A DNA stretch of 64,000 nucleotides from the NCBI GenBank assembly GCA_043767845.1, contig JAYUFZ010000008.1, forward strand, positions 4,242-68,241, in the 5' to 3' direction. Shown here piece by piece: positions 94-33,233 of the stretch (its first letter is position 1; the number at the start of each line of letters is the position of its first letter). The notes under the pieces are model-generated. The model did no database searches, was not told where the DNA came from, and was given only the letters and a program-made list of their open reading frames with translations. Both the position numbers and the translations under genes were made by a program. This stretch comes from a bacterium (lineage in GTDB: Bacteria; Patescibacteriota; Saccharimonadia; UBA4664; JBBRNT01).

Positions 94-3000
94 TTGAAAA
101 GCCTTATGGTGCATAGCCACTTCAAACCCTCACGACGCACCGTGGCTCTCACCCTGATTGCTGCCATGATGATTCCGCTCGTCACAGCGCTCATAGTCAC
201 AAAGCCTGCCCGAGCGTCTAGCACTGGCCTCATCTCGTCAGGCAAGGGCGTTCTTGCCTACGGCGACACCGGCAATGCCAACAACCCGCGAGTTAGGCCG
301 TGGGCGAGTGGCGCGACCAGCTTTGGTGCCGAGGGCGCGACTGCCTCTTCAATCACCCCGGCGCAAACCGTCATCAAGCAATCACCGACCAGAATCGATG
401 AGTGGATGATGGCGGTTGCCGACACCAGCGGCAACTTGCAGGTCCTCAAGTCGACAGATGGAGGAACCACTTGGTCTAGCGTCATATCCAGCTTCGCGAT
501 TGGCGGCACCGGTACTACCCGGCGGTTCGACTTAGCTTACGAAAGCAATAGCGGCGACGGCGTACTCATATACTCTAGGAACGCTACAACTAATGAGCTC
601 GGCTATCGCACCTGGGCCGGCTCCAGCTGGACCGCTGAAACCACCTACGACCCGGGCGGCACCGCCAATATCGTCACCTGGGTGGAGATAGGCGAACGAG
701 CCAATAGCGATGAACTTGCCGTCGCCTACCTCACCAATGGCGCGACTGATAACATTGGAGCCTTTATCTGGACCGGGAGTAGCAATACTCCGGGCAACGC
801 CACCGGGACAACCTTTGGAACCTGCGATCAGACGGCTGGTACTCCAGATGGCGTCGATAAATGCATGGACATAAACTACGAATCCGCCTCCGGCCGGCCT
901 GTGATGAGCTGGGGCATATCCAGTGCCGGCAATACCACAAACACTATCCGGGCCTCGCGCTGGGATGGATCGGCGTGGACCACCAATACGCTTAATATTG
1001 GTGCAACCGGTGACGACGGCACCTGGGTTGACTGCGAAAGCGACCCCGATCCGACCAGCTTAATTATCGCTTGCAGTAGTTTCGGGGCTTCGACCGCCGA
1101 CGTCCAGGCTTGGACGGTTAGCTCCGGCACGCTCGGGGTGGCCGGCATGGATATAGATACTGCCGCCCATGCTGCTTCTACCGGTCATGCCTACGTGGCG
1201 ACAACATACCTGTATAGCGGTAGTACGTACCGGGCAATTATGATGTATGCCGACGCCGCCGCCGATACGGGCTTTGACTACTCAACATTTAATGGAACGA
1301 CCTGGGCAGTTGAAGTGCAGGCAGCGGCCGGCTATGCCACCCAAGAAGAAAGTATGATTGCCGTCCGCAATGGAGCAACACCGTCCCAAGCATTAGTGCT
1401 CGTTACTGACGCCAGCAATGACCTCTACGCCGAAAAGATTGATATGGATTCCGCCGGCGTTGTGACCATCGCCCGGGCCGACAGCTCCGCCGCCCTGGAA
1501 ACTGTCGTACCCGCCACCCAAGGCTACCCAATGGACTTTGCTTTCGAGCCAGCGCGCCAATCGAGCGTCATCGACCAAAAAGGCTATATATTCGAAAATG
1601 ACGACGAAGATGTGGCTACAGGCGACGCCTACGATGAGAACACCCAACTGGCCGCCGGCAACACAGCAATGTCCATCCAGCAAGGCCGGCGCGTGAATAT
1701 CCGCGCCCAGCTCAACAATAGCGGCGGCGCGCTGGACGGCCACCCGGTCGGGCTATTTTATGACAAGAATGATGGCTATTGGAATAGAGTACGGACCACT
1801 GCCAAACCCAGGACTAGCGCAGGCAGCTGTGATAATACGTTATGGAACTGCAGTACAATCGATACGACGAATGGATCAGGATCAGAGACATCCGTTGCTA
1901 TCGATCCTAACGGTACACCTTGGATATCGAGCGTCGGCGTTGCAGGTGATAGTCTAGTGGTTGGTAAGTACGTGGGGTCTGGCGGAAGCGGTTGTGTTGC
2001 GGGCAATGGATGGCAATGCTTCCTGATAGATGCAGCGGTCAATACCGTGGGTGATAATTCCATAGCTATGGACTCCGCCGGTAACCCTTGGATTTCATAC
2101 TTTAAAGGCACAGGCACAGCCGCCACCTCTGGCTTGGATGTGGCGCGTTATGTTGGATCAGGCGGCACAGGCTGTTCTGGCACAGTCGCTTGGAGTTGTT
2201 CGATTGTTTTGTCAGGCAATACGACTGCTACAAAAAACTCATTGGCTTTTGATAGGCAAGGCAATGCCTGGGTAGCTTACGCCACGTCTCCCACAGGCAT
2301 TTCGGTTGCAAAGTACTCGATTCAAGCTGCAGCATGGACCAACACGCTCGTCGATGCGACTGTCACTGGTTTCAGCGATATTTCAATTGCTTTTGACAAT
2401 GCAGGCTTGCCCTGGATTGCTTACTATGACGCCAATGCCAGCGACTTGAACTTGCGAATTGCTAGAAACGTTGGCACGGGCGGTTCCGGTTGTACCGGTG
2501 GCTCGTCGGCTTGGACCTGCACTGCCATCGATACTACTGGTGATGTTGGTAAGAGCGCTTCAATAGCTATGGATCCCAACGGATATCCGTGGGTGGCCTA
2601 TGGGGACGTGACAAATACTTCGCTCAAGGTTGCCCGCTACGATCCGGCAGGCGGCTACTCGACATGTGCAGGCGGCGTAACCGACTGGGACTGCGTGACG
2701 GTCGATAACGGAGGCACGAACGGGGCCTATGCCTCTATTGCCTTTGATCCATCAGGCAAGGCCTGGATAGCCTATAACGACGATGGTTCGAACAATGATT
2801 TGTGGACAGCAAGATATGTGGGGGGTTCGGCGGGGACAGGCTGTACAAGCGGTTCGAATAATTGGACCTGTGCGTCGATCAATACCACAGGCTCGCAGGG
2901 TCATTATCCATCAATCGCTTTTGACCGTAACGGAAAAGCCACTATTTCCTACCAGGAATACACGTCAAACACCAACCTGCGGTTTGCCCAAATGGCTTAC

Positions 3001-5217
3001 AGCGGCGAAATTCTCATGGCGCCAACTATGGGAGCGGCGGCCGGTGACCCGCTGAACGAATCCCACGCTGATATGACAGCTACAACCGACACGACCAACC
3101 GTGATACAGCCAATTGTATTAGTACTGGCACTTGGAACAACGGGGCGGCCGATGGCGGCCGGGATGCGCTTACTACTTTGCGTGTGGGTGGAGGCACAGC
3201 CGGCAATGGTGGCTGTAGCGAGACCGAGTTTACTATTGATACTTCACAAGCCGTCGTAGGCACCACCTACCGCTTCGTGTTAGCCATTGACGACTCAAGT
3301 ACGAAAGAGAGGAGTCCTTGGCATGGGCCGTCGACCATAACCCAATATCCGACCATAACCGTAACCCCCGACGGCAGCGTCCGATACGGCAAATCGGCGC
3401 TGTATGAACCAGGCACGGCCGACTGTACGGCAGATACCAGTTGGACCTGTGGGCCAGTAAGTACTTGGTCCGGAACTTCTGCCTGGAATGAGCTCGCCTA
3501 TGATGCCCCTACGGATACACCATGGCTTGGCTATTACGCATTAAATGCTTCAGCTGCCAAATATGTCGGAGGGGGAACAGGTTCTGGCTGTGGGGCCAAC
3601 GGCTCGACCGACTGGCTATGCTGGTCGGTCGACGCCGGAGGACAGTACTTAAAGTCGGCGGTAGACCCGTCGGGAAATTTATGGATGGCATATTATACTG
3701 CCGGTACTGTTGCCAGCAAAAACTTGGGCGTTGCCAAATACGTCGGCGGGGGGAAGGGTACTGGTTGCTCGCTTTCCACCGACTGGACCTGCTGGCTGCC
3801 CGACCAGACCGGAGATGTCGGCAATACGCCAGCTATAACTTTCGGTCCGGATGGAAACCCAACCATTTCGGAGTTCGATGGTACCAATAACGCTGTCAAA
3901 GTAGTGCGTTATGTGGGTACGGGTGGCAACTGTGCGATCACTTCCTGGAGCTGCTACTCGATTGACGCGGCAACCAATAGTAATGGCCACCAAACTGGCG
4001 TCGTTTATGACGATGCCGGGACTGCCTGGATTGCCTACCGCAATAGTGCCGGTACTGGATTAAAAGTTGCCCAATTCGTTGGCGGAGGAGGAGCTGGATG
4101 CACGCTTACAGTTCAGTGGAATTGCGTAACTGTAGATACCAGTGTGGCACCAATAAATATGGGGATGGGAATGGGTCCGAATGGACCTGCTGTCACCTAT
4201 GGTAGTAGTGCCAATATCCTGCGTTACGCCAATTATGTTGGCTCCGGCGGGGGCTGTACTTCGGCAGCTTGGAACTGCATTAATGTTATGAATAACGGTG
4301 GCACATATGCTCAAAACGATACTAGCGTATCATTTGATGCTACAGGTAACCCCTGGATAGCCTTCTTTAGTACGGGGGTACCTAATAGCTCATTCCTCTA
4401 TGCTCGCTATCTGGGCGGTGCTACCACCGGCTCTGGCTGCGGTGGTGGCTTGACAACATGGAGCTGTGTGCCTGTAACTGGTGGCACGAACTCCTATGGG
4501 CAGTTCAGTAACATACTGTTTAATACTTCTGGTGAGCCGATGGTAGCCTACGGTTCGAGTGCGGGGCTGGGCACTATTTCGTTTGCCCGCAAGCGCAGCA
4601 ATATTACTAAGTCCTATTACGACGAAACATCGTCATTCACTCAGCATAATGGCGTCCGTTCCGATGGCCAGTGGCGACTGACGAGCGGGCGTTCACCAGC
4701 TACCTCGAGCGACCAACTCTGCGGCGGGGTGAGCGGCAACGCTGGATACTGCGCAGTCGGAACCGAAGATGGTAGCTATGATTCACTGACAGTTAAGGCC
4801 AAAGAAAAAGCCATGTACACCATGCGCTGGGAATATCCGGCCAACGCCGAAGCCCCAGGCGTGACCTGGGTCGGCAAGTCGACCCTAGCTCCAAGCACTG
4901 CCAGTACCGCCGGCGATTTAGCGCTCCAAGTCTACCGTTTCGGTACCACCAACGCCTGGGAGGATGTGGCAACTGATACTGCTAGCACAGATTGCACGGT
5001 CCGCTGTTCACTTACCGGTATGCCAGTCACGGGCGCAGTATCAGACTATTACGAAGCAAGCGGCTCGGTCTACTTCGCTTATTTCCGACTTATTCAACGC
5101 GAAACCACTGCCGCCTTCACACTCTCAACCGATAGCTTCAAAGCCGAGCAGACAGCCAAAGCCCTGCGCGGCGGCCAGTATTTCCGCGACGGCCAGAAGA
5201 CGCCGCTGAACTATTAA
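94..5217 (+). CDS. Giant secreted/cell-surface protein (1707 aa). It has an N-terminal signal/TM segment. At least 11 tandem ~70-aa repeats each carry a Cys pair ('YVGxGGxGC…WxC') and a beta-propeller-blade-like 'SIAxDxxGxPWIAY' motif.
   Basis: Long uninterrupted ORF with clear coding periodicity. The N-terminus MKSL…LTLIAAMMIPLVTALIV is hydrophobic. The motif YVG-GG-GC…W-C…D…G…SIA-D-G-PWIAY recurs about every 210 nt in the translation. No LPXTG motif is present at the C-terminus. Confidence 0.75.
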   Translation: MKSLMVHSHFKPSRRTVALTLIAAMMIPLVTALIVTKPARASSTGLISSGKGVLAYGDTGNANNPRVRPWASGATSFGAEGATASSITPAQTVIKQSPTRIDEWMMAVADTSGNLQVLKSTDGGTTWSSVISSFAIGGTGTTRRFDLAYESNSGDGVLIYSRNATTNELGYRTWAGSSWTAETTYDPGGTANIVTWVEIGERANSDELAVAYLTNGATDNIGAFIWTGSSNTPGNATGTTFGTCDQTAGTPDGVDKCMDINYESASGRPVMSWGISSAGNTTNTIRASRWDGSAWTTNTLNIGATGDDGTWVDCESDPDPTSLIIACSSFGASTADVQAWTVSSGTLGVAGMDIDTAAHAASTGHAYVATTYLYSGSTYRAIMMYADAAADTGFDYSTFNGTTWAVEVQAAAGYATQEESMIAVRNGATPSQALVLVTDASNDLYAEKIDMDSAGVVTIARADSSAALETVVPATQGYPMDFAFEPARQSSVIDQKGYIFENDDEDVATGDAYDENTQLAAGNTAMSIQQGRRVNIRAQLNNSGGALDGHPVGLFYDKNDGYWNRVRTTAKPRTSAGSCDNTLWNCSTIDTTNGSGSETSVAIDPNGTPWISSVGVAGDSLVVGKYVGSGGSGCVAGNGWQCFLIDAAVNTVGDNSIAMDSAGNPWISYFKGTGTAATSGLDVARYVGSGGTGCSGTVAWSCSIVLSGNTTATKNSLAFDRQGNAWVAYATSPTGISVAKYSIQAAAWTNTLVDATVTGFSDISIAFDNAGLPWIAYYDANASDLNLRIARNVGTGGSGCTGGSSAWTCTAIDTTGDVGKSASIAMDPNGYPWVAYGDVTNTSLKVARYDPAGGYSTCAGGVTDWDCVTVDNGGTNGAYASIAFDPSGKAWIAYNDDGSNNDLWTARYVGGSAGTGCTSGSNNWTCASINTTGSQGHYPSIAFDRNGKATISYQEYTSNTNLRFAQMAYSGEILMAPTMGAAAGDPLNESHADMTATTDTTNRDTANCISTGTWNNGAADGGRDALTTLRVGGGTAGNGGCSETEFTIDTSQAVVGTTYRFVLAIDDSSTKERSPWHGPSTITQYPTITVTPDGSVRYGKSALYEPGTADCTADTSWTCGPVSTWSGTSAWNELAYDAPTDTPWLGYYALNASAAKYVGGGTGSGCGANGSTDWLCWSVDAGGQYLKSAVDPSGNLWMAYYTAGTVASKNLGVAKYVGGGKGTGCSLSTDWTCWLPDQTGDVGNTPAITFGPDGNPTISEFDGTNNAVKVVRYVGTGGNCAITSWSCYSIDAATNSNGHQTGVVYDDAGTAWIAYRNSAGTGLKVAQFVGGGGAGCTLTVQWNCVTVDTSVAPINMGMGMGPNGPAVTYGSSANILRYANYVGSGGGCTSAAWNCINVMNNGGTYAQNDTSVSFDATGNPWIAFFSTGVPNSSFLYARYLGGATTGSGCGGGLTTWSCVPVTGGTNSYGQFSNILFNTSGEPMVAYGSSAGLGTISFARKRSNITKSYYDETSSFTQHNGVRSDGQWRLTSGRSPATSSDQLCGGVSGNAGYCAVGTEDGSYDSLTVKAKEKAMYTMRWEYPANAEAPGVTWVGKSTLAPSTASTAGDLALQVYRFGTTNAWEDVATDTASTDCTVRCSLTGMPVTGAVSDYYEASGSVYFAYFRLIQRETTAAFTLSTDSFKAEQTAKALRGGQYFRDGQKTPLNY

Positions 5218-5758: not shown

Positions 5759-6787
5759 TTATTGGATGAACATACTATCGCCGTAAGATAAGAATCCGTA
5801 GTCCCCAGCCAGTGCCTCGGCATAAGCCTTTTGGAGATTTGGCCAGCCGGCAAAGGCGGCGGCCAACATCAGGACCGTTGACCTGGGGGCGTGGAAATTG
5901 GTAATCAATGCGTCTACAATCTGGAATTCGTAACCTGGGTACATGAATATATCGGCCTCACCGCTCAGCGAATCGCCCGGGAAGCGTAAGTCACCAACCG
6001 CATACTCCAGAGTACGGGCGACAGTGGTGCCAAGCGCCACTACCCGGCGACCCGTACCCTTGGCAAGAGCAATCTCATAGCGGGTCTCGGCTGGGATTAG
6101 ATAGAACTCAGCATGCATTTTGTGTGTCTTTAAGTCATCAACACGTATTGGTAAAAATGTGCCAAGCCCAACGTGCAGCGTGAGGTAGGAAATAATTACG
6201 CCCTTTGCTTCGAGCGCGGCGAGCAGTGCAGGTGTCATATTGAGCGAAGCAGTCGGCGCCGCAACTGATCCTGATTGCGTGGCAAATGTCGTTTGATAAC
6301 GAACCTCATCGTCGGCGGTGGCATCCCGCTTCATATAGGGTGGCAGGGGAGTGTGGCCGGCTTTTTCGGCGAGCGTGTATAAGTCAGTGTCTGATTCAAT
6401 CTCGGCCAGCCCGCCCGCTAATACTTTTTTGACGAGTATCTGCTGTCCTTCAATTGTTAGCTGATCTCCAACTTCTAATGAGCCTCGATAAATAACCTTG
6501 GCCCCCAAAACAGGCCCACTGTTACCATCATGCTTTTCGGTTAGTAGTAGCTCCTGGCTCATCCCGGCAGCATTTTTGGCAATCAGTCGGGCCTTGATCA
6601 CTTTGGTATCATTGAGCACCAGCACATCGCCTTCATCTAGTAGATCTAGCAGATTAGAGTAGCTTTGATGGCTTATTACTCCATCCCCACGTCCCAGTAC
6701 CAAAAGCTTAGCCTGACCACGGATGGCTGGAGGGTGAGTAGAGATCCGGTCCTTTGGTAAATGGTAATCAAAATCACTAGTAAGCAT
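5759..6787 (-). CDS. queA: S-adenosylmethionine:tRNA ribosyltransferase-isomerase
   Basis: The N-terminus MLTSDFDYHLPKDRI matches the QueA family start. Length is 342 aa and the C-terminal HAPRSTVLML block matches the family. Confidence 0.85.
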   Translation of the reverse strand: MLTSDFDYHLPKDRISTHPPAIRGQAKLLVLGRGDGVISHQSYSNLLDLLDEGDVLVLNDTKVIKARLIAKNAAGMSQELLLTEKHDGNSGPVLGAKVIYRGSLEVGDQLTIEGQQILVKKVLAGGLAEIESDTDLYTLAEKAGHTPLPPYMKRDATADDEVRYQTTFATQSGSVAAPTASLNMTPALLAALEAKGVIISYLTLHVGLGTFLPIRVDDLKTHKMHAEFYLIPAETRYEIALAKGTGRRVVALGTTVARTLEYAVGDLRFPGDSLSGEADIFMYPGYEFQIVDALITNFHAPRSTVLMLAAAFAGWPNLQKAYAEALAGDYGFLSYGDSMFIQ

Positions 6788-6851
6788 GATCCATAGTTTA
6801 GCCCATTACATGAGTCTCGTCACGACTCGGGTCATGGTGTATGATAGCAAT

Positions 6852-7442
6852 ATGTCAAAAACCGTACGTAACCCGAATAACCGCCCCCGACCCAGACCAG
6901 CTTTTGTGTTACTCATTGCGGCTGTGGCGGGATTGGTAGTTTGGCAGGTAGAAGGGAAGTCACCACTCGCCAGTAGCATAGCTAAGATTCAGCCAGGGAC
7001 ATATCTAGTGAGCTACGTGGACGATGGCGATACCATCCGGGTGCGCGACAGCCTCGGGCACGAAAACACTGTCCGGCTCATCGGCGTTGATACCCCCGAG
7101 GTTAAGGATCCTCGCAAGCCAGTGCAGTGTTTCGGCGAGGAGGCCAGCAACTTCACCAAGCGACAGCTTAGCGGACAGCGCATCCGGCTGGTAAGCGACC
7201 CGCTATCGGCCGACCGCGATAAATACAGCCGCCTGTTGCGCTACGTGTACCTAGGGGACGGCACCTTCTTCAACACCAAGCTGGTGGGCGATGGCTACGC
7301 CTTTGCCTATGTTGTCTTCCCAAACAGCCATCTAAGTGAATTTGTGGATCTGGAGCGCCAGGCGCGAGACCAAAATAAGGGGCTTTGGGCCGGCTGTGGT
7401 GTTAACGATAGCAGTAAGATCAAGCAGACAACTGGGCGCTAG
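6852..7442 (+). CDS. Membrane-anchored thermonuclease (staphylococcal-nuclease-like, SNase fold)
   Basis: Contains the motifs VDGDTIRV…RLIGVDTPE…RYVYL…GYA. An N-terminal TM segment follows a Pro/Arg-rich stretch. The ORF-track start at 6786 overlaps the divergent queA start, so the internal ATG at 6852 (MSKTV…) was chosen. Confidence 0.65.
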   Translation: MSKTVRNPNNRPRPRPAFVLLIAAVAGLVVWQVEGKSPLASSIAKIQPGTYLVSYVDDGDTIRVRDSLGHENTVRLIGVDTPEVKDPRKPVQCFGEEASNFTKRQLSGQRIRLVSDPLSADRDKYSRLLRYVYLGDGTFFNTKLVGDGYAFAYVVFPNSHLSEFVDLERQARDQNKGLWAGCGVNDSSKIKQTTGR

Positions 7443-10781: not shown

Positions 10782-11909
10782 ATGCAACAGCCCACCAAAT
10801 CACTTGATATCACACCTATTACGCCGGATCCAGTTGATCCGAGCTATTCGGCTACGCCAGCCCAACACACCCAACCAGCTAGCGAGCTATTTGCCGTAGA
10901 GGCCTACACCGACCGGCCAGAGCTCCACCAAGCACGGGCAGCTATTGCTTCGCTCCACGATGCCCACGGCTCTGTGCCAGCCACCCAGCTCCTCCCAAAC
11001 CAGATCGTCCGACCTATGGTAGCAGTTTCATCAATATCTGGCCCCAGCCTATCACCGCTGGCTAGCGCTACCGCTGGCGAGACACATTTCATGCCACTGA
11101 GCCAACCGACTTTCCCCAAGGCCACCCATCACGATAAGCGTCACGCCACCAAAAAGAACCGCGTCAAGCCGATCATAGCTGCTGTTGGCTCATTTGTGCT
11201 GTTGCTAGCACTTTTTAAGTCACAGATCATTTTCAGCCAGATCAGCTACCTCGGCCAAGCCAATAAAGCCTCAAGCAACGTGCCGGTCATTACCGGTAAT
11301 AACGAGCTTATTTCAGCAGACAGCGTCTTAAATATTCCCAAGATTAATGTCTCAGCGCCAATCGTATTCGTGCCCACGACCGAAGAATCCCAAATCCAAA
11401 AAGCACTCGAGGGAGGCGTTGTCCACTACGGGGGAACCGCCGAGCCAGGCCAAAAAGGCAATGCCGTTATCGTCGGCCATTCTTCGAACGACTGGTGGGA
11501 GCCAGGCAATTACAAATTTGTCTTCGTACTACTCGACAAATTGATCGTGGGCGACACATTTAGCCTGAATTACAAATCGACCAAATACGTCTACGAAGTA
11601 ACTGAGGTGAAAGTCGTGGAGCCAACCGAGCTTAGTGTACTGGCCCCAACCGCCGACCCGACTATTACGCTTATTACCTGCACACCCCCAGGAACCAGCT
11701 GGAAGCGCCTGGTTATTAAGGCTCGGCAAATTAGCCCTTCACCGACCAGCGCAGTGGCGACAACCACCACAGCCACCCCAACGCCAACCGGCGCCCTGCC
11801 CAGCAACCCACCAAGCTTCTTTGAGCAGATCGCCCAGTTCTTTGGCGGACTATTCGGCGGCAATAAAAAGAGTGAGACCCCTTCCGCAGGCAGCCTGCCC
11901 GGGCTTTAG
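10782..11909 (+). CDS. Sortase family transpeptidase with N-terminal Pro-rich region, TM anchor and Pro/Thr-rich C-terminal tail
   Basis: Contains the catalytic TLITC motif, HSSNDWW and a conserved Arg downstream, plus the TM segment IIAAVGSFVLLLALF. Confidence 0.7.
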   Translation: MQQPTKSLDITPITPDPVDPSYSATPAQHTQPASELFAVEAYTDRPELHQARAAIASLHDAHGSVPATQLLPNQIVRPMVAVSSISGPSLSPLASATAGETHFMPLSQPTFPKATHHDKRHATKKNRVKPIIAAVGSFVLLLALFKSQIIFSQISYLGQANKASSNVPVITGNNELISADSVLNIPKINVSAPIVFVPTTEESQIQKALEGGVVHYGGTAEPGQKGNAVIVGHSSNDWWEPGNYKFVFVLLDKLIVGDTFSLNYKSTKYVYEVTEVKVVEPTELSVLAPTADPTITLITCTPPGTSWKRLVIKARQISPSPTSAVATTTTATPTPTGALPSNPPSFFEQIAQFFGGLFGGNKKSETPSAGSLPGL

Positions 11910-11931
11910 TCGGACGCCGCGAGACACAGGG

Positions 11932-13368
11932 TTAATGTTTGGTCTCGATCGAAATAAGATCGGTTGTTTTCAGATCCGCCCCCAGCATCGGTAGCAGAAT
12001 GGCTTTTTGGTCGGCTGTCGAGTAACCTAGACCAGTCGTTTTTGCGAGATCTCGGGTATTAGCACCATCAAACTCGCTCCAGAACAGCTCACCATTTCTG
12101 GTAGTAAGCAAGTGGGCATTGTCAAACCAGCTGAGTCCGGTAACGCCAGTTCTCGAGTCAAAGGCATAGCTGCTACTCTTCTCCAGGTCATACACCCCAA
12201 CGCCATTCTCTGAGTAGTGTGACAAAAAGTGGCCATCAGCAGTAAAAGCCAAATGCAGCGCGTCTTTAGAAACAATTTTTGCCAGAGGGAAGCCGCTGGA
12301 TAGATCACTGTAGAGCGTGACAGTACGGGCCTTGGTTGGCAAAACGGCGAGCACATCCTGGTTCTTATAATTACTAAAAGCAATCTCGTAGCTATCGCTA
12401 TCAGCCAGCGCTTGCACGAGCTCTTTTTTATCTTTGCCGCTGTGGTCGATAGAGTATAAAGTTTTACCGAGCTTCGAGCTCTGGACGTAGAGTATTCGAT
12501 CAGCACCAAAAGCAAAGCTTGTGACACTCTCGGCAAGCACCGCCGAAACAGTCTGGGCATTGAGGTCTATTTTGCGTAGGCCTTCTGGGCTTACCCAGTA
12601 GAGCTCGCGCCAATTGCTGGGCGAGAATCGGAGGCTGGAGTTAAACTCATAGCGAAAAGTCTCGCTGAGGGCGATAGCCGCGCCAGGCGTGGTGGGGATG
12701 ATCTGATAATTGTTTCTCGGGCCAATGGTGGAATGTAGGAGCAGGTGCGAATTATCATCGGCCCAACTAACTTCGGCCAACACCTCAGCCGGAGTTTCGA
12801 CAACTTCGGGATTTATTGCAGTTTTGACCACCGCCGCCTTAGGCGTGTAAACCCGAGTCGGCTGGTGGCTGGTGGTGTCTAGGACCCATAGCCCAGCATC
12901 GTTACCGCTGGCCACGCTATAGGCAAACAGTTTATGGTCCTTAGAAGGCACAAGGCCGCTCATAGTCGGCTGGCTCAGCAGTGTGCTTGTTCGCAACTGG
13001 GAGGGGAGGAGCCAGATATACTGCACCCACACAACTTCCGAGGCTTTCACCTGGATTTGCTTCTGCCAAGGCTGGTAGCCGTCTTTGGTGACTGTATAAT
13101 TGTAGCTTTGGGCCTCGACTGTATTTCTAAATGGCGTCTTGCGATGGATATTCTTGCCGTTCTGCAGAATCGTCGCACCGGTCGGATAGGAGCCGATAAC
13201 CACCAGGCCGTTCAGCGTTGTACGGTGGTTTCTGAAGTCATAGCTGTAGCCACTGCCAATAGCCACAAGCACGATAGTACCGACAACGACGAAGCCGAAA
13301 CTACCGAAGAAGGATAGGATCGAGGCAATACGTTTCCAGCTGTTTTTTGGTTTTTTGCGAGGGCTCAT
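11932..13368 (-). CDS. PEGA-domain membrane protein with C-terminal beta-propeller-like region
   Basis: N-terminal TM segment. The PEGA-like block is GSYPTGATILQNGKNIHRKTPFRNTVEAQSYNYTVTKDGYQPW. Repeated W/D-containing blades follow. Confidence 0.55.
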   Translation of the reverse strand: MSPRKKPKNSWKRIASILSFFGSFGFVVVGTIVLVAIGSGYSYDFRNHRTTLNGLVVIGSYPTGATILQNGKNIHRKTPFRNTVEAQSYNYTVTKDGYQPWQKQIQVKASEVVWVQYIWLLPSQLRTSTLLSQPTMSGLVPSKDHKLFAYSVASGNDAGLWVLDTTSHQPTRVYTPKAAVVKTAINPEVVETPAEVLAEVSWADDNSHLLLHSTIGPRNNYQIIPTTPGAAIALSETFRYEFNSSLRFSPSNWRELYWVSPEGLRKIDLNAQTVSAVLAESVTSFAFGADRILYVQSSKLGKTLYSIDHSGKDKKELVQALADSDSYEIAFSNYKNQDVLAVLPTKARTVTLYSDLSSGFPLAKIVSKDALHLAFTADGHFLSHYSENGVGVYDLEKSSSYAFDSRTGVTGLSWFDNAHLLTTRNGELFWSEFDGANTRDLAKTTGLGYSTADQKAILLPMLGADLKTTDLISIETKH

Positions 13369-13498
13369 CGCAGCAATAATACTCCACCAGCGCTAAATTC
13401 TCAATCGACCAGCGGTCAGGTGCCTGGCTCCTCACAGGTTGGGTTCTGCTCGTTTCATGCTTCATGATTGACCCCAGGCTGCTATACTAGGGACAACT

Positions 13499-14506
13499 AT
13501 GTTTCAAAGACGAATTGCTATTGATCTGGGAACGGCCAACGTTTTGGTGTATGTGCCAAAGCGCGGTATTGTCGTAAACGAACCGAGCGTCGTGGCGCTC
13601 GATACTACCACCAATCGGATCCTGGCTGTCGGCACTGAAGCCAAAGAGATGCTCGGCCGCACACCGGAGACGATTGTGGCTTCGCACCCCCTGCGTGATG
13701 GCGTCATAGCCGACTACCGCATTACCCAAGCTATGATTAGGCATTATATAAACAAAGTCTCTAGCGGCTGGCGGATCACCCGGCCAGATGTCATGGTTTG
13801 CGTGCCCGCCGGTGCAACCTCTACCGAACGTCGGGCGGTCATCGATGCCACCCTAGCAGCCGGCGCGCGAGCAGCCTACATTATCAAAGAGCCAGTGGCG
13901 GCGGCTATCGGCGCCGGTATCCCAATCTCTTCGGCGGCCGGCAATATGGTTGTCGACATTGGCGGTGGCACCACCGAGATCGCTATATTATCGCTTGGCG
14001 GGATTGTAGCCTGGCATAGCGTCCGAGTCGGCGGCAATAAGATTGACGCGGCCATCGCCGACTTCATCCGCCGCAATTACGGGCTAGCCATTGGCGACCG
14101 AACGGCTGAAGAGATCAAGAAAGAATTGGGGAGTGCCTTACTGCTTACCAAGGACCGGCACATGGAAATCCGTGGCCGCGATGTGATCGCCGGGCTGCCA
14201 AAAACCATCACCATCCATGCCAATGAGATTACGACCGCCATTGGCGACGAGCTCGACAAAATAATCCTGGCTATCCGGACTGTGCTGGAGCAAACCCCGC
14301 CCGAACTATCGAGCGACATTATCGACAGGGGTATGGTACTCACCGGTGGCGGGGCATTACTCAAGAATCTCGACCGCTTACTATCCAATGTTACAGGCGT
14401 GCCCTGCGTCGTGGCCGAGGAGCCCTTACTCTGCGTGGCACGAGGCACCGGCATCGCCCTCGACAACCTGAACGACTACAAACGTAGTCTGGCAGGGATT
14501 CGCTAA
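13499..14506 (+). CDS. mreB: Rod-shape-determining actin homologue MreB
   Basis: Contains IAIDLGTANVLVYV, DIGGGTTEIAI and the phosphate-2/adenosine motifs typical of MreB. Confidence 0.9.
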   Translation: MFQRRIAIDLGTANVLVYVPKRGIVVNEPSVVALDTTTNRILAVGTEAKEMLGRTPETIVASHPLRDGVIADYRITQAMIRHYINKVSSGWRITRPDVMVCVPAGATSTERRAVIDATLAAGARAAYIIKEPVAAAIGAGIPISSAAGNMVVDIGGGTTEIAILSLGGIVAWHSVRVGGNKIDAAIADFIRRNYGLAIGDRTAEEIKKELGSALLLTKDRHMEIRGRDVIAGLPKTITIHANEITTAIGDELDKIILAIRTVLEQTPPELSSDIIDRGMVLTGGGALLKNLDRLLSNVTGVPCVVAEEPLLCVARGTGIALDNLNDYKRSLAGIR

Positions 14507-15796
14507 ATGGGTGAGCTGACTGACCAGCCGATCGGACCAGGTCAAAAACTTGCTCAGTTAGCCAGTAGCGGCTTATTACTACTCGTAGCCATCATGCCCT
14601 TCCACGCCTTCTTGACGGTCTGGGTGGCTAGTTTCATCAGCCATCGCAGCCTCCTCCAAAGCTGGAAAGAATTGGTGATCGTCATGCTTATGGGTCTCGC
14701 GGCCTGGCAGGTTTATAAGCACCCCAAAAACCATCTACCAAAGATGAGGCGCCGTTATGTCTACTTCACATTGGCTTACGTTATTTGGGCAGTTGGGCTA
14801 TCGCTTATCCGCTGGCCTGGGGCCGTAAGCTTCGCTTTCGGCATCAAAACCGACCTTTTGTTCTTGGGCCTACTGCTTGCGACCACAGTTTTGGCTACCA
14901 AAAAGCTGGCCTCTCGCGCGGCCACAGTCATTTTAGCCACGACCAGCATCGTTGTCGCTTTCGGAACCCTGCAGGCATATCTTCTGCCAAAGGATTTTTT
15001 GGTGCACTTTGGCTATGGGCCGAGCACCATTGCCCCCTACCTTGGCCTCACTGCCTACACCACAGCTTTTCGTATTTTAAGCACACTTGGCGGGCCGAAC
15101 CAGCTCGGTTGCTTTTTAATCTTGCCACTCTGCCTGCTGCTAGCATCTGCCATACATAAATTCAAATGGTGGCAACCACTAGTAATGCTCCTGGGGATCG
15201 TCACGCTCTGGCATACGTACTCACGCAGCGCTTGGATTGGCACAGCCGTCGCCCTAACGGCGACTATAATTCTATCCACCCCGAGCGCGCTGCGGCGCAG
15301 GGTAGCACTCACGACCGCAGGAGTTGTGCTAGTTCTGGCTGGCCTGACCTATTACAGTTTCCAGCGCAGCGCCAGCTTGCAGAATTTCCTCTTGCATGGC
15401 AACCTAGCCAACTATGGGCGCCTCAATACCTCCGACGGCCAGCGCCTTGATGCCCAAAACCACGCGCTCAGTGTTATCAAAAGCCATCCGTTGGGCTTGG
15501 GGCTTGGTACCGCCGGACCGGCCAGCTTCCATAGCCAGCAGCCGATAATTAGCGAGAACTATTACCTGCAAATCGCCATCGAGCTGGGGATCCCGGGGCT
15601 TGTACTATTCCTATGCCTCCTAACCAGCCTTGGCCGAGCTCTCTACCAATACTGCAACCGCCCACTCGCCGCTAGCGCCCTGGCCAGCCTCATCGGCATC
15701 AGTATCGTAAATCTATTCCTGCATGGCTGGGCGGATAGCTCGACGGCCCTTGTCTGGGCCATCGCGGCCGGCGCAAGCATGAGGCACCATGACTAA
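14507..15796 (+). CDS. Polytopic membrane protein, O-antigen ligase/polymerase (Wzy_C)-like
   Basis: About 10–12 predicted TM helices. The WHTYSRSAWIG motif is characteristic of the O-antigen ligase domain. Its start abuts the mreB stop. Confidence 0.5.
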   Translation: MGELTDQPIGPGQKLAQLASSGLLLLVAIMPFHAFLTVWVASFISHRSLLQSWKELVIVMLMGLAAWQVYKHPKNHLPKMRRRYVYFTLAYVIWAVGLSLIRWPGAVSFAFGIKTDLLFLGLLLATTVLATKKLASRAATVILATTSIVVAFGTLQAYLLPKDFLVHFGYGPSTIAPYLGLTAYTTAFRILSTLGGPNQLGCFLILPLCLLLASAIHKFKWWQPLVMLLGIVTLWHTYSRSAWIGTAVALTATIILSTPSALRRRVALTTAGVVLVLAGLTYYSFQRSASLQNFLLHGNLANYGRLNTSDGQRLDAQNHALSVIKSHPLGLGLGTAGPASFHSQQPIISENYYLQIAIELGIPGLVLFLCLLTSLGRALYQYCNRPLAASALASLIGISIVNLFLHGWADSSTALVWAIAAGASMRHHD

Positions 15797-24526: not shown

Positions 24527-26080
24527 ATGTTGATGAAACATGATGATCGATTCCGCTACCACGCCTTGGCGCTGTTTTTCGCAGTTGCCTTATTCCCGGC
24601 CGTTACAGTCAGTACCTTGTGGTATGTACTGACCCGCGCCACCACCTCTGGGAGCCTGGTAAGCTATGGAATAGTTGTACTACCGATCGCCATTCTTGGC
24701 CTGGCACCGGCTCTAGTTCTAAGCTTTTTCTTCGTTGAACTACTGGTGCAGCCGATCCGCCGCCTCCACCAAGCGATCGATGAAATAAGCAAGGGTAATT
24801 TTAACTTCCGAAGCCATTTCAAGAAGGGGAGCGAGTTCTACGAAATGGCCGAGTCACTCAATGGTATATCAAGTACCATGGAAGAGATCCTCAGCCAAAA
24901 AAGCGGCGAGAACGAGTTAATCGTAGCCGAGCGCAACAAACTGCGAGCCGTCTTAGACTCTATGGAAGATGGCGTATTTGCTATCGACTCCAGCGGCCGC
25001 ATAATGCTGTTCAATAAAGCCGCCCAGGAGATTACTGGCCGCTCGATAACCGAGGTTGCTGGACAGCTCTCAGAGAAAGTCATGCCACTACGCCGTGGCG
25101 AAGAATTGGTAATGGCCAGCTGGCTTGCCGATCGGCGGGTTGCCAAGCGCGAACTAGGCGAATGGCGCAACCTTACACTCTACCGAGCCGATGGCGATAA
25201 GCTCTTCGTCGATGTTCGAGCTATCAAACTCCCCAGCGACCCGAACGGTATCCAGGCCCTAGTGACCTTCCACGATCTTACCAAGAGCCACAATCTGGAG
25301 GAAATGAAGGTCGACTTCGTGTCTCTGGCGGCTCACGAACTGCGGACACCACTGACCGCTATAAAAGGCTATCTAGACGTGCTCGAAACCGAGACAGAGG
25401 GGGAGCTGTCGGTCGACCAGCAGCAAATCCTAGCCCGCACCATCATTAGCGCCCGGCAGCTCTCTGGAGTGGTTAATAATATATTAAACGTCTCCCGTAT
25501 TGAGCGCGGCGAACTGGCCCTGAACTTCGAGATTATTGACCCCAAAGCACTCGTCCACAACCTAAAGATCGACTATGATGTTCGCGCCCAGCAACAAAAC
25601 CGCCAGCTCGAAGTCCACTACGGCAGCCACTTGCCGGCGATAAACGTCGATCTGGTGGGTATTACCGAAGTCATGAATAACCTCGTCGATAACGCCATCA
25701 ACCATACCGAACCGGGCGGCAAGATCGATATCAAACTTAGCTTCATCAAAGACAATCAGGAATTGGAAATAATCGTCACCGATGACGGCCACGGCATACC
25801 AAAAGCCGCCATTCCCAAATTATTCACCAAGTTCTACCGGGTCGAGGGCCTACACACCACCAAGGGCACTGGCCTCGGCCTCTTCATCTCCAAATCGATT
25901 CTCGAAGCATTCGGCGGCCGCATTTGGGTAGAGTCCGAGGAGGGCCACGGCGCGAGTTTTAGCTTACGGATCCCAGCGGCGCAGCTAGTTGCAGAGAAAG
26001 AACATGCGTCGCATAATAGTAGAACAAGTGGCTCAATGAAAGGAACTCATGGCTGGATCAAAGACCATTCTATTCGCTGA
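24527..26080 (+). CDS. Sensor histidine kinase (2 TM, HAMP, PAS, HisKA, HATPase_c)
   Basis: H-box LAAHELRTPLTAIKGY, plus N-box and G-boxes (DDGHGIP, GTGLGL). Confidence 0.8.
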   Translation: MLMKHDDRFRYHALALFFAVALFPAVTVSTLWYVLTRATTSGSLVSYGIVVLPIAILGLAPALVLSFFFVELLVQPIRRLHQAIDEISKGNFNFRSHFKKGSEFYEMAESLNGISSTMEEILSQKSGENELIVAERNKLRAVLDSMEDGVFAIDSSGRIMLFNKAAQEITGRSITEVAGQLSEKVMPLRRGEELVMASWLADRRVAKRELGEWRNLTLYRADGDKLFVDVRAIKLPSDPNGIQALVTFHDLTKSHNLEEMKVDFVSLAAHELRTPLTAIKGYLDVLETETEGELSVDQQQILARTIISARQLSGVVNNILNVSRIERGELALNFEIIDPKALVHNLKIDYDVRAQQQNRQLEVHYGSHLPAINVDLVGITEVMNNLVDNAINHTEPGGKIDIKLSFIKDNQELEIIVTDDGHGIPKAAIPKLFTKFYRVEGLHTTKGTGLGLFISKSILEAFGGRIWVESEEGHGASFSLRIPAAQLVAEKEHASHNSRTSGSMKGTHGWIKDHSIR

Positions 26081-26538: not shown

Positions 26539-27693
26539 ATGCCTACAAAAAAGTCCACTAAAAGCAAAACACCAACAGCCACTCGTTCGCGCGTTGCTCA
26601 TGCTAAGCCAGTCATCGCTACCGAGTCCGGCTGGGCGAAACGCAATCTATTGATTATGGCAGGGGTAGCAGTTTTGGCAGTTGCCGTGGCAGCCAGTGCC
26701 TACATCTACACGACCAAGCACAAGACTGTCACCAAGACGCCTGTCACACTGACTAAGGTCAAGGTCAAGCTCAAGTGGCTCCACAACGCCCAGTTTGCCG
26801 GCCTCTACTATGCCAAAGAAAAGGGTTATTTCGCAGCTGAAGGCTTGGACGTGAGTTTTGAAGAGTGGTCGAGTACCCGTAGTTCGGCAACCAAGATCGT
26901 TGATGCCAAAGAAGCAGATTTCGGTGTTTCAACTGGTACCGATATCATCAACGCCAGAGCCAACTCCGGCCGCAAGGTCGTTGGACTGGCCACTGTCTTC
27001 CAGCATGACCCTGAAGGCTATGTAGCCCTCAAATCATCAGGCATTACTGACCTCAAAAGCGTTGCCGGCCATAATGTTGGGCTCTTCCCTGGAAAGACTA
27101 CGACTATATGGAATGCTATGCTCAAGGCCCAAAACCTATCAAGCCTTAGCTTCAAGCAGACGAATATGGACTTCAGCAAACTGCCCAAGCCTGAGACTAA
27201 GGTCTTGACTGACAAAACAGTTGATGTCTACGCCACCTTCCTGACCGACCAAGCCGTCCGTCTCAAGGCTGACCTAGCGGCCAGTGGCTCGAGCGACGAG
27301 ATCGTGACCTTCAACCCCTACGACTATGGTATTGCCAACTACAATGACACACTCTTCACCTACGATGATATGGTTAAAAACAATCCGGCTCTGGTTCAGA
27401 AATTCGTCAACGCCGCAGTCAAAGGTTGGCATGACGCTATAGCTGACCCGACCGGCGCAGTCACCGCCATCCACGCCTACGACGGTGCCGACTATAAGCC
27501 CTACGAAGCCGCTATTTTCAAGGCCGAAGTGCCTTTCATCCAGACCAACGATGTGCCTCTGCTCTGGACCGATGGTGCAGTCTGGAAGGGTATGTATTCG
27601 ATGATCAACGCTACTGGCTCGCTCAAGACCCAGATCGACGTTACAGCCGCCTACGACTCAAAGTTTGTCCGCAACTACTACAACATCAAGTAA
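26539..27693 (+). CDS. NMT1/THI5-like periplasmic substrate-binding protein (nitrate/sulfonate/bicarbonate/HMP family) with N-terminal TM anchor
   Basis: LKWLHNAQFAGLYYAKEKGYF is the family hallmark. There is a TM anchor. No permease or ATPase genes are adjacent; the protein sits between the kinase genes. Confidence 0.6.
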   Translation: MPTKKSTKSKTPTATRSRVAHAKPVIATESGWAKRNLLIMAGVAVLAVAVAASAYIYTTKHKTVTKTPVTLTKVKVKLKWLHNAQFAGLYYAKEKGYFAAEGLDVSFEEWSSTRSSATKIVDAKEADFGVSTGTDIINARANSGRKVVGLATVFQHDPEGYVALKSSGITDLKSVAGHNVGLFPGKTTTIWNAMLKAQNLSSLSFKQTNMDFSKLPKPETKVLTDKTVDVYATFLTDQAVRLKADLAASGSSDEIVTFNPYDYGIANYNDTLFTYDDMVKNNPALVQKFVNAAVKGWHDAIADPTGAVTAIHAYDGADYKPYEAAIFKAEVPFIQTNDVPLLWTDGAVWKGMYSMINATGSLKTQIDVTAAYDSKFVRNYYNIK

Positions 27694-27711: not shown

Positions 27712-29565
27712 ATGAAGCTGGCTAATAGGAGTTCGCTTAGCACCAAGCTAACCGTGTACTTCCTAATAGCCGCTTTGTTGCCGGTTGGCATTGCAGGCGT
27801 GTTGATACTGAGAGTAGCCCAGAAAAACATCGACACATTGACCTTTTCAAACTTAGAACTAGCCAGAAACCTCAAAATCAACCAGATCAATCTATTGATA
27901 GAAAAAGAATCTGAGGTAGTAAATGCACTATCTAAAACCCAGACGGTTCAAGATAGTGCCATGAGCTTAAAAAACAAGCAGCCCCTCAGCCCTGCGCAAT
28001 TGTCTGCTTATAAGCCGCTCGTTGAAGTCGAGGGTGAATTCATTGAGGTTTTTCTCATAGATAGTGAAACGGCTAAGGTTTATGCATCAAGCAATACGGC
28101 CGAACTTACAAAAAACAAACAACTTGATGAATCGTTCGTACGTGGCAAGCAGGCGCTATTTGTACAAGATTTATATTTCGACTACTCTAATTTTGTACCG
28201 CGATATACTATCACCACTCCAATCATTATCGGCGGCCAATTGGTGGGTGTCTTCGGTGCTCATCTCGAACTCGATGCCATCGACCAGATCATGGCCGAGC
28301 CCCTAGGTATTGGCGATACCAGCGAGACATATTTAATTAATAAAGCGCATCAGTTCGTCTCAGACAGTCGCTTCGATCCGAATTCCAAATTCAATCTAGG
28401 TCTCAATACGGCACAGTCGGAGTCGGTATTGGCGGGCAAGGAAGGAAAAGGAATTTACAAGAATTACCGCGGCAAACTCGTGTATGGGAACTACGTCTAC
28501 ATTCCTGAGAGACACCTAGCAATCTTCGCCGAAGTTGAGCAACACGAAGCACTGGCCTCACTCCGTGAATTTGAACGGCTTATCTTGTATGCAGCTCTGG
28601 CTAGCTGCCTCTTTCTCGTCCTACTCACGCGCTTGTTTACCAACCAATTCTTAAAGCCGATAAGAAAGCTAACCGAGGGCGTAGAAGCCTTCGGCCGTGG
28701 CCAGCTGACGACGCGTATTAGTATTACTTCCAAAGATGAGGTCCGCAAGCTAGCTGAAACCTTCAATAGCATGGCCCAGTCGGTCCAAGACAGCATTACC
28801 AAGCTGCGCGAGCTGGATAAACTCAAATCCGAGTTCCTAGCCATTGCCTCGCACAACCTACGCACACCGCTGTCGGTCATCATGGGCTACGCCGATGGTA
28901 TGCGCGATGCTAACAATAAGCTCAATAAAGATGCCGCTATCATTGGCTCCTACGCCCAGCGACTCAACGTCTTTGCTGAAGATATGCTACTAATCTCTGA
29001 AATTGAGATTGGCGGCAATCTGGCCACCGTTACTCAAAAAACGCCGACCGACATCACTACGCTCATCGGGGAGATAGCTACGCAGATTACCCCGATGGTC
29101 TCAGAGAAGAAGCTATCTCTAGGAGTAGTAGCCGCCAAAAAAATCCCGATGGTCAATATTAATAAGCAATATGTTAAAGATGCCATTTGGAATATCCTCG
29201 ATAACGCTATAAAATTCACCGGCGAGAACGGCATTATCACCATGACGGCCAAGCCGGTCAAGGACAAAGTGACGGTCACTATTGCCGATACTGGAGCGGG
29301 TATCGCCAAGGAAGAGCTACCAATGCTCTTTACCAAATTCCACCGCGGGACTAGCACTATGGTTTACAACTACGAGGGCACCGGTCTCGGTCTGTACGTC
29401 GCTAAGCTGATTGTGGAGAGTAATGGGGGGCAGATAGAGGTTGAAAGCGTCGAAGGTAAAGGAACGACAGTGACGCTTATGTTCCCCGTAGCGCCAGTCG
29501 AGCCAAAGTCCAAGGACGCCCTCACCCCCAAAGCTGTCAAAACCATCGCCGACACATTGGAGTAG
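27712..29565 (+). CDS. Sensor histidine kinase with extracytoplasmic Cache-like domain, HAMP, HisKA, HATPase_c
   Basis: H-box IASHNLRTPLSVIMGY. G-boxes DTGAGI and GTGLGL. Two TM segments flank a ~250-aa sensor domain. Confidence 0.75.
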   Translation: MKLANRSSLSTKLTVYFLIAALLPVGIAGVLILRVAQKNIDTLTFSNLELARNLKINQINLLIEKESEVVNALSKTQTVQDSAMSLKNKQPLSPAQLSAYKPLVEVEGEFIEVFLIDSETAKVYASSNTAELTKNKQLDESFVRGKQALFVQDLYFDYSNFVPRYTITTPIIIGGQLVGVFGAHLELDAIDQIMAEPLGIGDTSETYLINKAHQFVSDSRFDPNSKFNLGLNTAQSESVLAGKEGKGIYKNYRGKLVYGNYVYIPERHLAIFAEVEQHEALASLREFERLILYAALASCLFLVLLTRLFTNQFLKPIRKLTEGVEAFGRGQLTTRISITSKDEVRKLAETFNSMAQSVQDSITKLRELDKLKSEFLAIASHNLRTPLSVIMGYADGMRDANNKLNKDAAIIGSYAQRLNVFAEDMLLISEIEIGGNLATVTQKTPTDITTLIGEIATQITPMVSEKKLSLGVVAAKKIPMVNINKQYVKDAIWNILDNAIKFTGENGIITMTAKPVKDKVTVTIADTGAGIAKEELPMLFTKFHRGTSTMVYNYEGTGLGLYVAKLIVESNGGQIEVESVEGKGTTVTLMFPVAPVEPKSKDALTPKAVKTIADTLE

Positions 29566-33045: not shown

Positions 33046-33233
33046 CTGATCCTCCAAGGATCGTGTGGGTACGGCTACTTAACCTAGCAGATGAGGATCC
33101 TTCAATGGATGTACTATTGTATTACTTTACTGTACTTTTGTCAATATTATCAATCATCGAGCCGATCCCGTCCCTAGGATAGGCTTTTAGATTGAAATAT
33201 TGCCCCCGACGCTGCATAATAAGCGTAACAACG

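Follow-up and report, generated by a model that had tools for sequence, protein, structure and literature searches.

Gene and domain organization

The window analysed in this work comprises 64,000 nucleotides (nt) of contig JAYUFZ010000008.1 from a bacterium of the Saccharimonadia (assembly GCA_043767845.1), and close to its left edge lies, on the plus strand, a gene for a giant putative surface protein, hereafter termed the window protein. The open reading frame (ORF) for 1707 amino acids (aa) that an initial annotation of the DNA had reported is present as described, the length being counted from the TTG codon at nt 94. The reading frame stays open back to nt 1 of the window; the database copy P0001, an NCBI model with 100% identity to the window protein, comprises 1743 aa, which places its annotated start ~14 nt outside the window on the left side. 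Translation might also begin at a third site, the ATG at nt 106. Gly, Thr, Ala and Ser together account for ~46% of the residues, and all 36 cysteines are found within 18 close pairs. On the basis of the models described below, the protein is predicted to carry three seven-bladed β-propellers split by small β domains (Table 1). A six-frame search of the 64 kb with the profile of the repeat unit found no second carrier gene.

Table 1. Predicted domains of the window protein and further genes of the window
Feature	Residues (aa)	Position (nt)	Strand	Basis or remarks
Whole ORF		94..5217	+	start TTG 94; alternatives ATG 106 or an ATG further upstream, beyond the window
N-terminal hydrophobic helix (TVALTLIAAMMIPLVTALIVT), followed by KPARA|SS	16-36	139..201	+	sequence; AlphaFold2 helix aa 18-34
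Predicted propeller 1, non-repetitive	~45-490	226..1563	+	AlphaFold2, Foldseek, identity to homologues
Linker domain (GYIFENDDED...LFYDKNDGYW)	~493-570	1570..1803	+	small β-sandwich predicted with low to moderate confidence
Predicted propeller 2	571-967	1804..2994	+	seven units and closing strand LRFAQ (960-967)
Inter-propeller insert	968-1102	2995..3399	+	conserved motifs, one Cys pair (1008/1041)
Predicted propeller 3	1103-1500	3400..4593	+	seven Cys-pair units and closing strand ISFARK (1495-1500)
C-terminal domain	1501-1707	4594..5214	+	AlphaFold2 predicted local distance difference test score (pLDDT) 53-77 over the structured part, aa ~1560-1685
Small membrane protein, 164 aa		5229-5723	-	immediately downstream; N-terminal membrane helix, no family match
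QueA			-	downstream neighbour beyond the small membrane protein
Secreted-type SNase (staphylococcal-nuclease) homologue		6786-7442	+	after QueA; N-terminal hydrophobic segment
Sortase		10782-11909		envelope gene cluster (10782-15796)
PEGA-domain protein		11932-13368	-	envelope gene cluster
MreB		13499-14506		envelope gene cluster
Wzy_C/O-antigen-ligase-like protein		14507-15796		envelope gene cluster

The hydrophobic helix near the N-terminus represents either a Sec signal peptide or a membrane anchor. In homologues the equivalent helix is preceded by a basic N-terminal region of 40-90 aa, which favours the anchor over a cleaved signal peptide. This helix is the only evident means of retention. 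An LPXTG-like motif with a hydrophobic tail was looked for at the C-terminus (...KALRGGQYFRDGQKTPLNY) and not found, and sortase anchoring was rejected for lack of this signal despite the sortase gene in the window; judged from its sequence, the large protein is thus not an obvious substrate of that enzyme. A prepilin N-terminus was likewise discarded, as the GFxxxE motif is absent from the window protein and neither Pfam nor NCBIfam gives a prepilin match (PF07963, TIGR02532).

The N-terminal ~450 aa are predicted, again from modelling, to form a third, non-repetitive propeller. This propeller 1 is the best-conserved part of the protein, with 49-54% identity to four of five homologues and 35% to P0007, and contains many invariant Asp, Glu and Arg residues, two Cys pairs and a single Asp-box-like motif (STDGGTTW, aa ~121-128). 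In the adjoining linker domain the motif LFYD[RK]NDG is kept in all of the 17 related loci described below. The inter-propeller insert is characterized by the motifs ESHADM..TDT..RD.A.C and C.E..F.IDTS.A..G.TYRF and by pLDDT values of 22-56. The structured part of the C-terminal domain is predicted to be all-β, probably a sandwich or jelly-roll; the domain contains two Cys pairs and a conserved tail (LRGGQYF...P), and P0002, P0005 and P0007, which are full-length homologues, have retained it.

Two blocks of seven repeat units

Motif searches combined with a MAFFT alignment defined 14 repeat units, arranged in two blocks of exactly seven (aa 571-959 and aa 1103-1495). The units span aa 571-617, 618-677, 678-736, 737-783, 784-840, 841-899 and 900-959 in the first block and aa 1103-1148, 1149-1207, 1208-1264, 1265-1319, 1320-1372, 1373-1430 and 1431-1495 in the second. 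The periodicity is readily detected by profile and lies far beyond chance: a hidden Markov model (HMM) built solely from block 2 detects the full set of seven units in block 1 with 288.7 bits, compared with a maximum of 5.2 bits in 200 shuffles of block 1. The tandem repeats claimed by the initial annotation are therefore real, while its details need adjustment, since the count given as at least 11 is 14 in a 7+7 arrangement according to both MAFFT and the HMM, the unit put at ~70 aa measures 46-65 aa (typically 55-60, about 57), and the array thought to run through most of the protein covers about 47% of it. The unit profile finds no match in the N-terminal 570 aa, the 135-aa inter-block insert or the C-terminal 207 aa.

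Tandem Repeats Finder detected no tandem repeat at the DNA level within the array, and the mean identity between units is 35%; the array is thus ancient and diverged. A recent duplication or an assembly artefact was rejected on the same grounds, the DNA-level repeat being absent. Each block opens with a lone W-x-C strand and closes, after the seventh unit, with an extra L-[KR]-x-A strand, namely LRFAQ in block 1 and ISFARK in block 2. A propeller closed in Velcro fashion would be expected to show just such a lone first and extra last strand.

A probable cysteine-stapled loop

The pattern Y-V-G-x-G-G-x-G-C-x(4-9)-W-x-C is present in 13 of the 14 units, the exception being the unit at aa 737-783, which lacks the Gly-rich loop together with both cysteines. 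When the predicted strands are compared with the sequence, the first Cys is placed in the loop between strands three and four and the second in strand four. The spacing is most commonly C-x6-C, and longer spacings extend up to 17 residues. Among the 114 Cys-type proteins obtained by profile search, both cysteines are found in 1254 units, neither in 23 and only one in 11. The two residues are hence gained and lost together, which fits a structural disulfide, and judging from the sequence the loop Cys is probably bonded to that of the W-x-C motif. The pair had been called invariant and likely disulfide-forming; the co-occurrence is consistent with the latter, whereas invariance holds for 13 of 14 units only. 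Such disulfide staples would make the protein rigid and protease-resistant outside the cell.

Predicted fold

AlphaFold2 was run on aa 540-1707 with an alignment of 8 sequences and in a second run on aa 1-570. In the first model each unit forms four strands, with pLDDT values mostly between 60 and 89 in the two repeat blocks. When this model was compared with the PDB by Foldseek, seven-bladed propellers ranked first among the compact matches, headed by the Photorhabdus lectins PLL, PLL2-5 and PHL (E 5e-12 to 1e-10, target-normalised template modelling (TM) score 0.66-0.71, 13-15% identity) and followed by the glycoside hydrolase (GH) GH145 BT3686 and its relatives, the putative neuraminidase BACOVA_03493 and the polysaccharide lyase (PL) PL42 FoRham1. 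The second model (mean pLDDT 74, predicted TM score (pTM) 0.75) consists of a helix at aa 18-34 and ~30 strands, and PHL/PLL once more lead its compact matches (TM 0.60-0.67); sialidases, the fungal six-bladed fucose lectins AofleA and FleA/AFL, GH74, GH145 and PL25 rank lower.

These predictions agree with the propeller-blade nature ascribed to the repeat by the initial annotation and, as far as the models can be relied upon, decide its question of several propellers or a β-solenoid for the former, with three of them. A β-solenoid was rejected because the strand pattern, unit counts in multiples of seven and the Foldseek hits all speak for closed propellers, and a single long array because 7+7 units fit two of them. 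Propellers 2 and 3 would probably form closed seven-bladed rings, and the sequence fits such a closure. The blade of ~57 aa would be composed of the four strands ..SIAFD.., ..PWISY.., ..LKVARYVG and W-x-C-TTVD, the hairpin between strands three and four bearing the Gly-rich insertion of 8-12 residues, and the ring would be closed Velcro-style by the lone fourth strand at the block start and the extra third strand at its end.

A large blade family outside the named families

Exhaustive scoring of 1.84 billion cluster representatives with a unit profile of 57 positions gave 16,635 matches at E <= 1e-3, 8,724 at <= 1e-10 and 1,634 at <= 1e-30. Among the best 150 of the 16,635, the number of units per protein peaks at 7 (26 proteins) and 13-14 (85 proteins), then at ~20-21 and 28. 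The lower-scoring matches carry a blade of 47 aa without cysteines (consensus NGDLKYAHKNGSSWSIETVDSAGDVGKYTSLALDASGNPHISYYDST; for example P0114 and P0155). It is homologous to the window blade (hhalign probability 99%, E 3e-18) and shares its strand pattern and the occurrence in multiples of seven, but has neither the insertion nor the Cys pair. The gap of ~10 residues in the hhalign alignment falls exactly at the Gly-rich Cys loop, so that the window blade can be understood as an insertion into an older Cys-less blade. The term Cys-pair insert used in the initial annotation is hence apt, the inserted ~10 residues including the first Cys.

None of the named families captures this blade. A scan of the whole protein against Pfam gave nothing above threshold and one against NCBIfam no match, in line with the initial annotation, which had not recognised the Cys-pair insert as a named repeat family. 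The likeness to Reg_prop, which had also been noted, is real as a weak score (14.6 bits, E 0.039) but remains below the cut-off of 20.4, and none of the individual stretches attains it. BNR_4 (PF15892) does not match the window protein even at E 10, and the Asp-box S-x-D-x-G-x-T-W is found in none of the 14 repeat units. Of the relatives, the Cys-less ones attain a BNR_4 score, their sole contact with Pfam, by summed weak partial matches only, and the close relative P0083 passes Reg_prop and SBBP by summed score only. Searches of the PDB sequences with the protein, the unit profile and the N-terminal-domain profile yielded only chance-level or short-motif matches (CIAO1, Pizza6, a proteasome subunit); the unit profile reaches 27 bits with Pizza6 over a 14-residue hairpin motif, while GH145 chains remain at E > 0.1, and no PLL/PHL chain was found by phmmer or profile search. 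No characterised repeat family therefore matches the protein end-to-end in Pfam, NCBIfam or the PDB sequences.

Comparison with known propellers

The best structural matches of all three predicted propellers are the PLL/PHL lectins (fucose/O-methyl-sugar; PDB 5c9o, 5mxg, 6rg2, 8q81), which consist of seven near-identical four-stranded blades like propellers 2 and 3. In PLL, this arrangement is reported to create more than one binding site in each ring (Kumar et al. 2016, PMC5122772). The likeness is one of fold, with an identity of only 13-15% and no match found at the sequence level; moreover, the lectins are small soluble proteins of ~340-350 residues without the Gly-rich Cys-stapled loop. 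Reg_prop (PF07494), SBBP (PF06739) and the NHL-type/Pizza blades have the S-hydrophobic-A-hydrophobic-D-x-x-G-x-hydrophobic-W-hydrophobic hairpin in common with the window blade; they differ in that only 14 of the 57 unit positions align. NHL/Pizza propellers are six-bladed.

Seven-bladed propellers displayed outside the cell are also known from PilX2 of TM7x and PilY1 of Pseudomonas. The pilin PilX2 of the cultivated Saccharibacterium TM7x is needed for efficient host binding (PMC11623550) and provides the sole experimental, albeit indirect, parallel to a possible binding role of the window protein. PilX2 is built from RCC1-type blades, in contrast to the other blade type found here, and the window protein differs from the pilus adhesins by the absence of the prepilin GFxxxE motif, by its three propellers and by its size of >1700 aa.

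Relatives of the full architecture

A word-indexed search of 5.8 billion proteins retrieved only 15 relatives of the full architecture, none with a functional name, and a scan of 185,579 species genomes (GTDB) 17 related loci. The latter belong to Saccharibacteria/Saccharimonadia, Lloydbacteria, Terrybacteria, Levyibacteriota, Paceibacterota, an unclassified Patescibacterium, one Omnitrophota bin and bins of Acidimicrobiales and Solirubrobacteraceae. Most of the 17 loci and four full-length homologues have 14 units; five loci have 7-13. In four loci (L010, L011, L013 and L017) the gene is split into two overlapping ORFs with 3+11, 4+10, 4+10 and 9+5 units, again 14 in each case, which suggests frameshifts from sequencing error or pseudogenisation.

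Several bins carrying the 14-blade architecture are assigned to Actinomycetota, namely Acidimicrobiales (L006, L008 and L009, the latter two on contigs of 19 and 196 kb) and Solirubrobacteraceae (L011, contig of 385 kb); the contigs with these genes are long and have a GC content of 57-61%. Horizontal transfer and mis-binning are both possible origins. Cultivated Saccharibacteria are known to live on Actinomycetota hosts. In P0003, P0004 and P0010 (locus L017) the N-terminal propeller is broken by a nested insert of ~340 aa, composed of 7-8 copies of a second Cys-pair repeat (GIIYRC.TSSGCD..GDWTT.YDT.E..I.SL..D..N.VLYAG), which looks like a propeller inside a propeller.

Orthology of blades by position was not found, since units at the same position share 35-41% identity, compared with 34-39% for units at other positions. 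Such orthology would suggest an asymmetric, enzyme-like specialisation of blades. Only the scaffold is constrained, leaving the loops free to diverge. Variability within the profile is highest at positions 29-34, 36-38, 53-55 and 1-3, as well as 18-21 inside the Cys loop.

The Cys-type propeller also occurs singly on other proteins. It follows prepilin N-termini that pass TIGR02532 in P0084, which is metagenomic, and P0100, whose cluster includes Terrybacteria members, and it forms the N-terminus of the teneurin/RHS-like giants P0076 and P0085, which contain PKD, TTR, NHL, YD-shell and PT-HINT domains; in further proteins it stands alongside TIG or PKD domains. By analogy, these prepilin, toxin-like and TIG/PKD settings are those of extracellular display or delivery, in which a variable module normally would do the recognising.

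Directly upstream of the gene and on the same strand, seven of the 17 loci contain a giant fibre-like ORF of 1000-1800 aa rich in Thr, Ser, Gly and Ala (L002:3-3185, L003:2168-6049, L014:881-6310, L017:1-5118 and also in L010, L012 and L016), which ends in a conserved domain of its own (PEYPGA..MTSDFC..HNYY.W...GEIR.DY). The gene thus tends to sit in a surface-protein locus. For the window gene, the equivalent upstream position falls beyond the left window edge.

Functional considerations

The window protein most probably serves in binding or adhesion. As the favoured reading, with a probability of roughly 55%, we propose a membrane-tethered, disulfide-stiffened surface protein whose two near-symmetrical propellers serve as multivalent binding platforms, the probable target being a host-surface component in an epibiotic Saccharibacterium. 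The adhesion or ligand-binding role is inferred from the architecture, and disulfide formation, surface anchoring and binding function are deduced in a comparable manner. An extracellular binding role is suggested by the hydrophobic helix, the fusions to prepilins and toxins, the diverging loops, the fibre-like neighbours and the PilX2 parallel. In a possible scenario, the N-terminal helix would hold the protein at the cell surface, propellers 2 and 3 may bind in a lectin-like manner as in Photorhabdus PLL/PHL or may bind proteins, and the variable loops (unit positions 29-34, 36-38, 53-55 and 1-3) would set the specificity; the likely ligand of an epibiotic Saccharibacterium would be a surface component of the host cell or the matrix.

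Several points weigh against this proposal. Propellers are generic scaffolds, and the lectins are followed in the structural ranking by enzymes (GH145, PL42, sialidases, GH74). In propeller 1, the conserved polar residues might make up a catalytic rather than a binding site. The model of aa 540-1707, with 8 sequences only, has a mean pLDDT of 64.6 and a pTM of 0.45, these values being depressed by weak prediction of the inter-block insert and the far C-terminus. Owing to the uncertain start codon, a cleaved signal peptide and a membrane anchor are indistinguishable, and the immediate neighbours (QueA, the nuclease and the small membrane protein) offer no functional hint.

The enzyme matches lead to the idea of a surface-bound carbohydrate-active enzyme, in which glycoside hydrolase or polysaccharide lyase activity towards host envelope glycans would reside in the N-terminal propeller and the repetitive propellers would provide carbohydrate-binding or spacer modules. 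In its favour, Foldseek relates the N-terminal model to sialidases, GH74, GH145 and PL25 and the repeat model to GH145 BT3686 and PL42 FoRham1, propeller 1 is the most conserved part, containing the numerous invariant Asp, Glu and Arg positions and the single Asp-box-like motif noted above, and the Cys-less relatives attain their summed BNR_4 score. However, the TM values of the N-terminal model are 0.2-0.5 with enzymes compared to 0.60-0.67 with PLL/PHL, catalytic residues cannot be aligned, and a sequence match to a CAZy-related family of Pfam, NCBIfam or the PDB is lacking even by profile, which renders an enzyme rather unlikely. We consider it similarly improbable that the protein is a structural envelope component, such as an S-layer part or a fibre base, with propellers as rigid blocks or oligomerisation hubs devoid of a specific ligand. 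The very large size, the Thr/Ser/Gly/Ala-rich composition, the giant fibre-like ORF adjoining the gene in seven of 17 loci and the envelope genes at 10.8-15.8 kb (sortase, PEGA, MreB, Wzy_C) are compatible with such a component, but the rarity of the full architecture (15 relatives among 5.8 billion proteins, 17 loci in 185,579 genomes) is a better fit to an accessory protein, and the presence of the module on pilins and toxins points to recognition. A role as extracellular sensor or receptor, with propellers that capture a signal and relay it to the cell, is very unlikely: the weak likeness to Reg_prop, the propeller of two-component sensors, and the three histidine kinases at 24.5-35.1 kb of the window might be quoted for it, yet the Reg_prop score is under the cut-off, a cytoplasmic signalling domain is absent, with at most ~50 basic residues ahead of the helix, and the kinases are 20 kb away and not conserved neighbours.

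Beyond the favoured binding role, the Cys-stapled propeller might represent a portable, fast-evolving host-recognition module of episymbiotic Patescibacteria, used on giants, pilus tips and RHS-type toxins and exchanged with the host Actinomycetota. We regard this wider scheme as doubtful; if it were true, the window protein would determine the host range.

The fold and the idea of a propeller-bearing surface protein are already well known. What is new is modest and consists of a large unnamed blade family without a solved member by sequence, its Cys-stapled insertion subfamily and a triple-propeller architecture conserved in Patescibacteria. To our knowledge, host recognition and attachment by ultrasmall episymbiotic bacteria are largely unexplained and only type IV pili, including a propeller-bearing pilin, have been implicated so far; the window protein is a concrete candidate for a second, non-pilus recognition device. 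The blade family, with its 16,635 cluster representatives, is captured by no Pfam or NCBIfam model, and a profile and a name for the blade would improve the annotation of thousands of giant surface proteins listed as "hypothetical". As the fold is ordinary, the value is practical rather than conceptual, a useful lead and not a new kind of system.

Further genes of the window

The genes next to the window protein and the envelope gene cluster are listed in Table 1; the remaining window contains housekeeping genes and the three histidine kinases. The MreB encoded in the window is up to 92% identical to metagenomic proteins, and its closest named relatives are those of Candidatus Saccharimonadales/Saccharibacteria (~85%), a result that suits the remark of the initial annotation about a small-genome organism. 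The histidine kinases, of the HAMP/PAS type, lie within 11 kb (24527-26080, 27712-29565 and 33192-35108), with an NMT1/THI5-like binding protein among them (26539-27693), which is much sensing capacity for a reduced genome.

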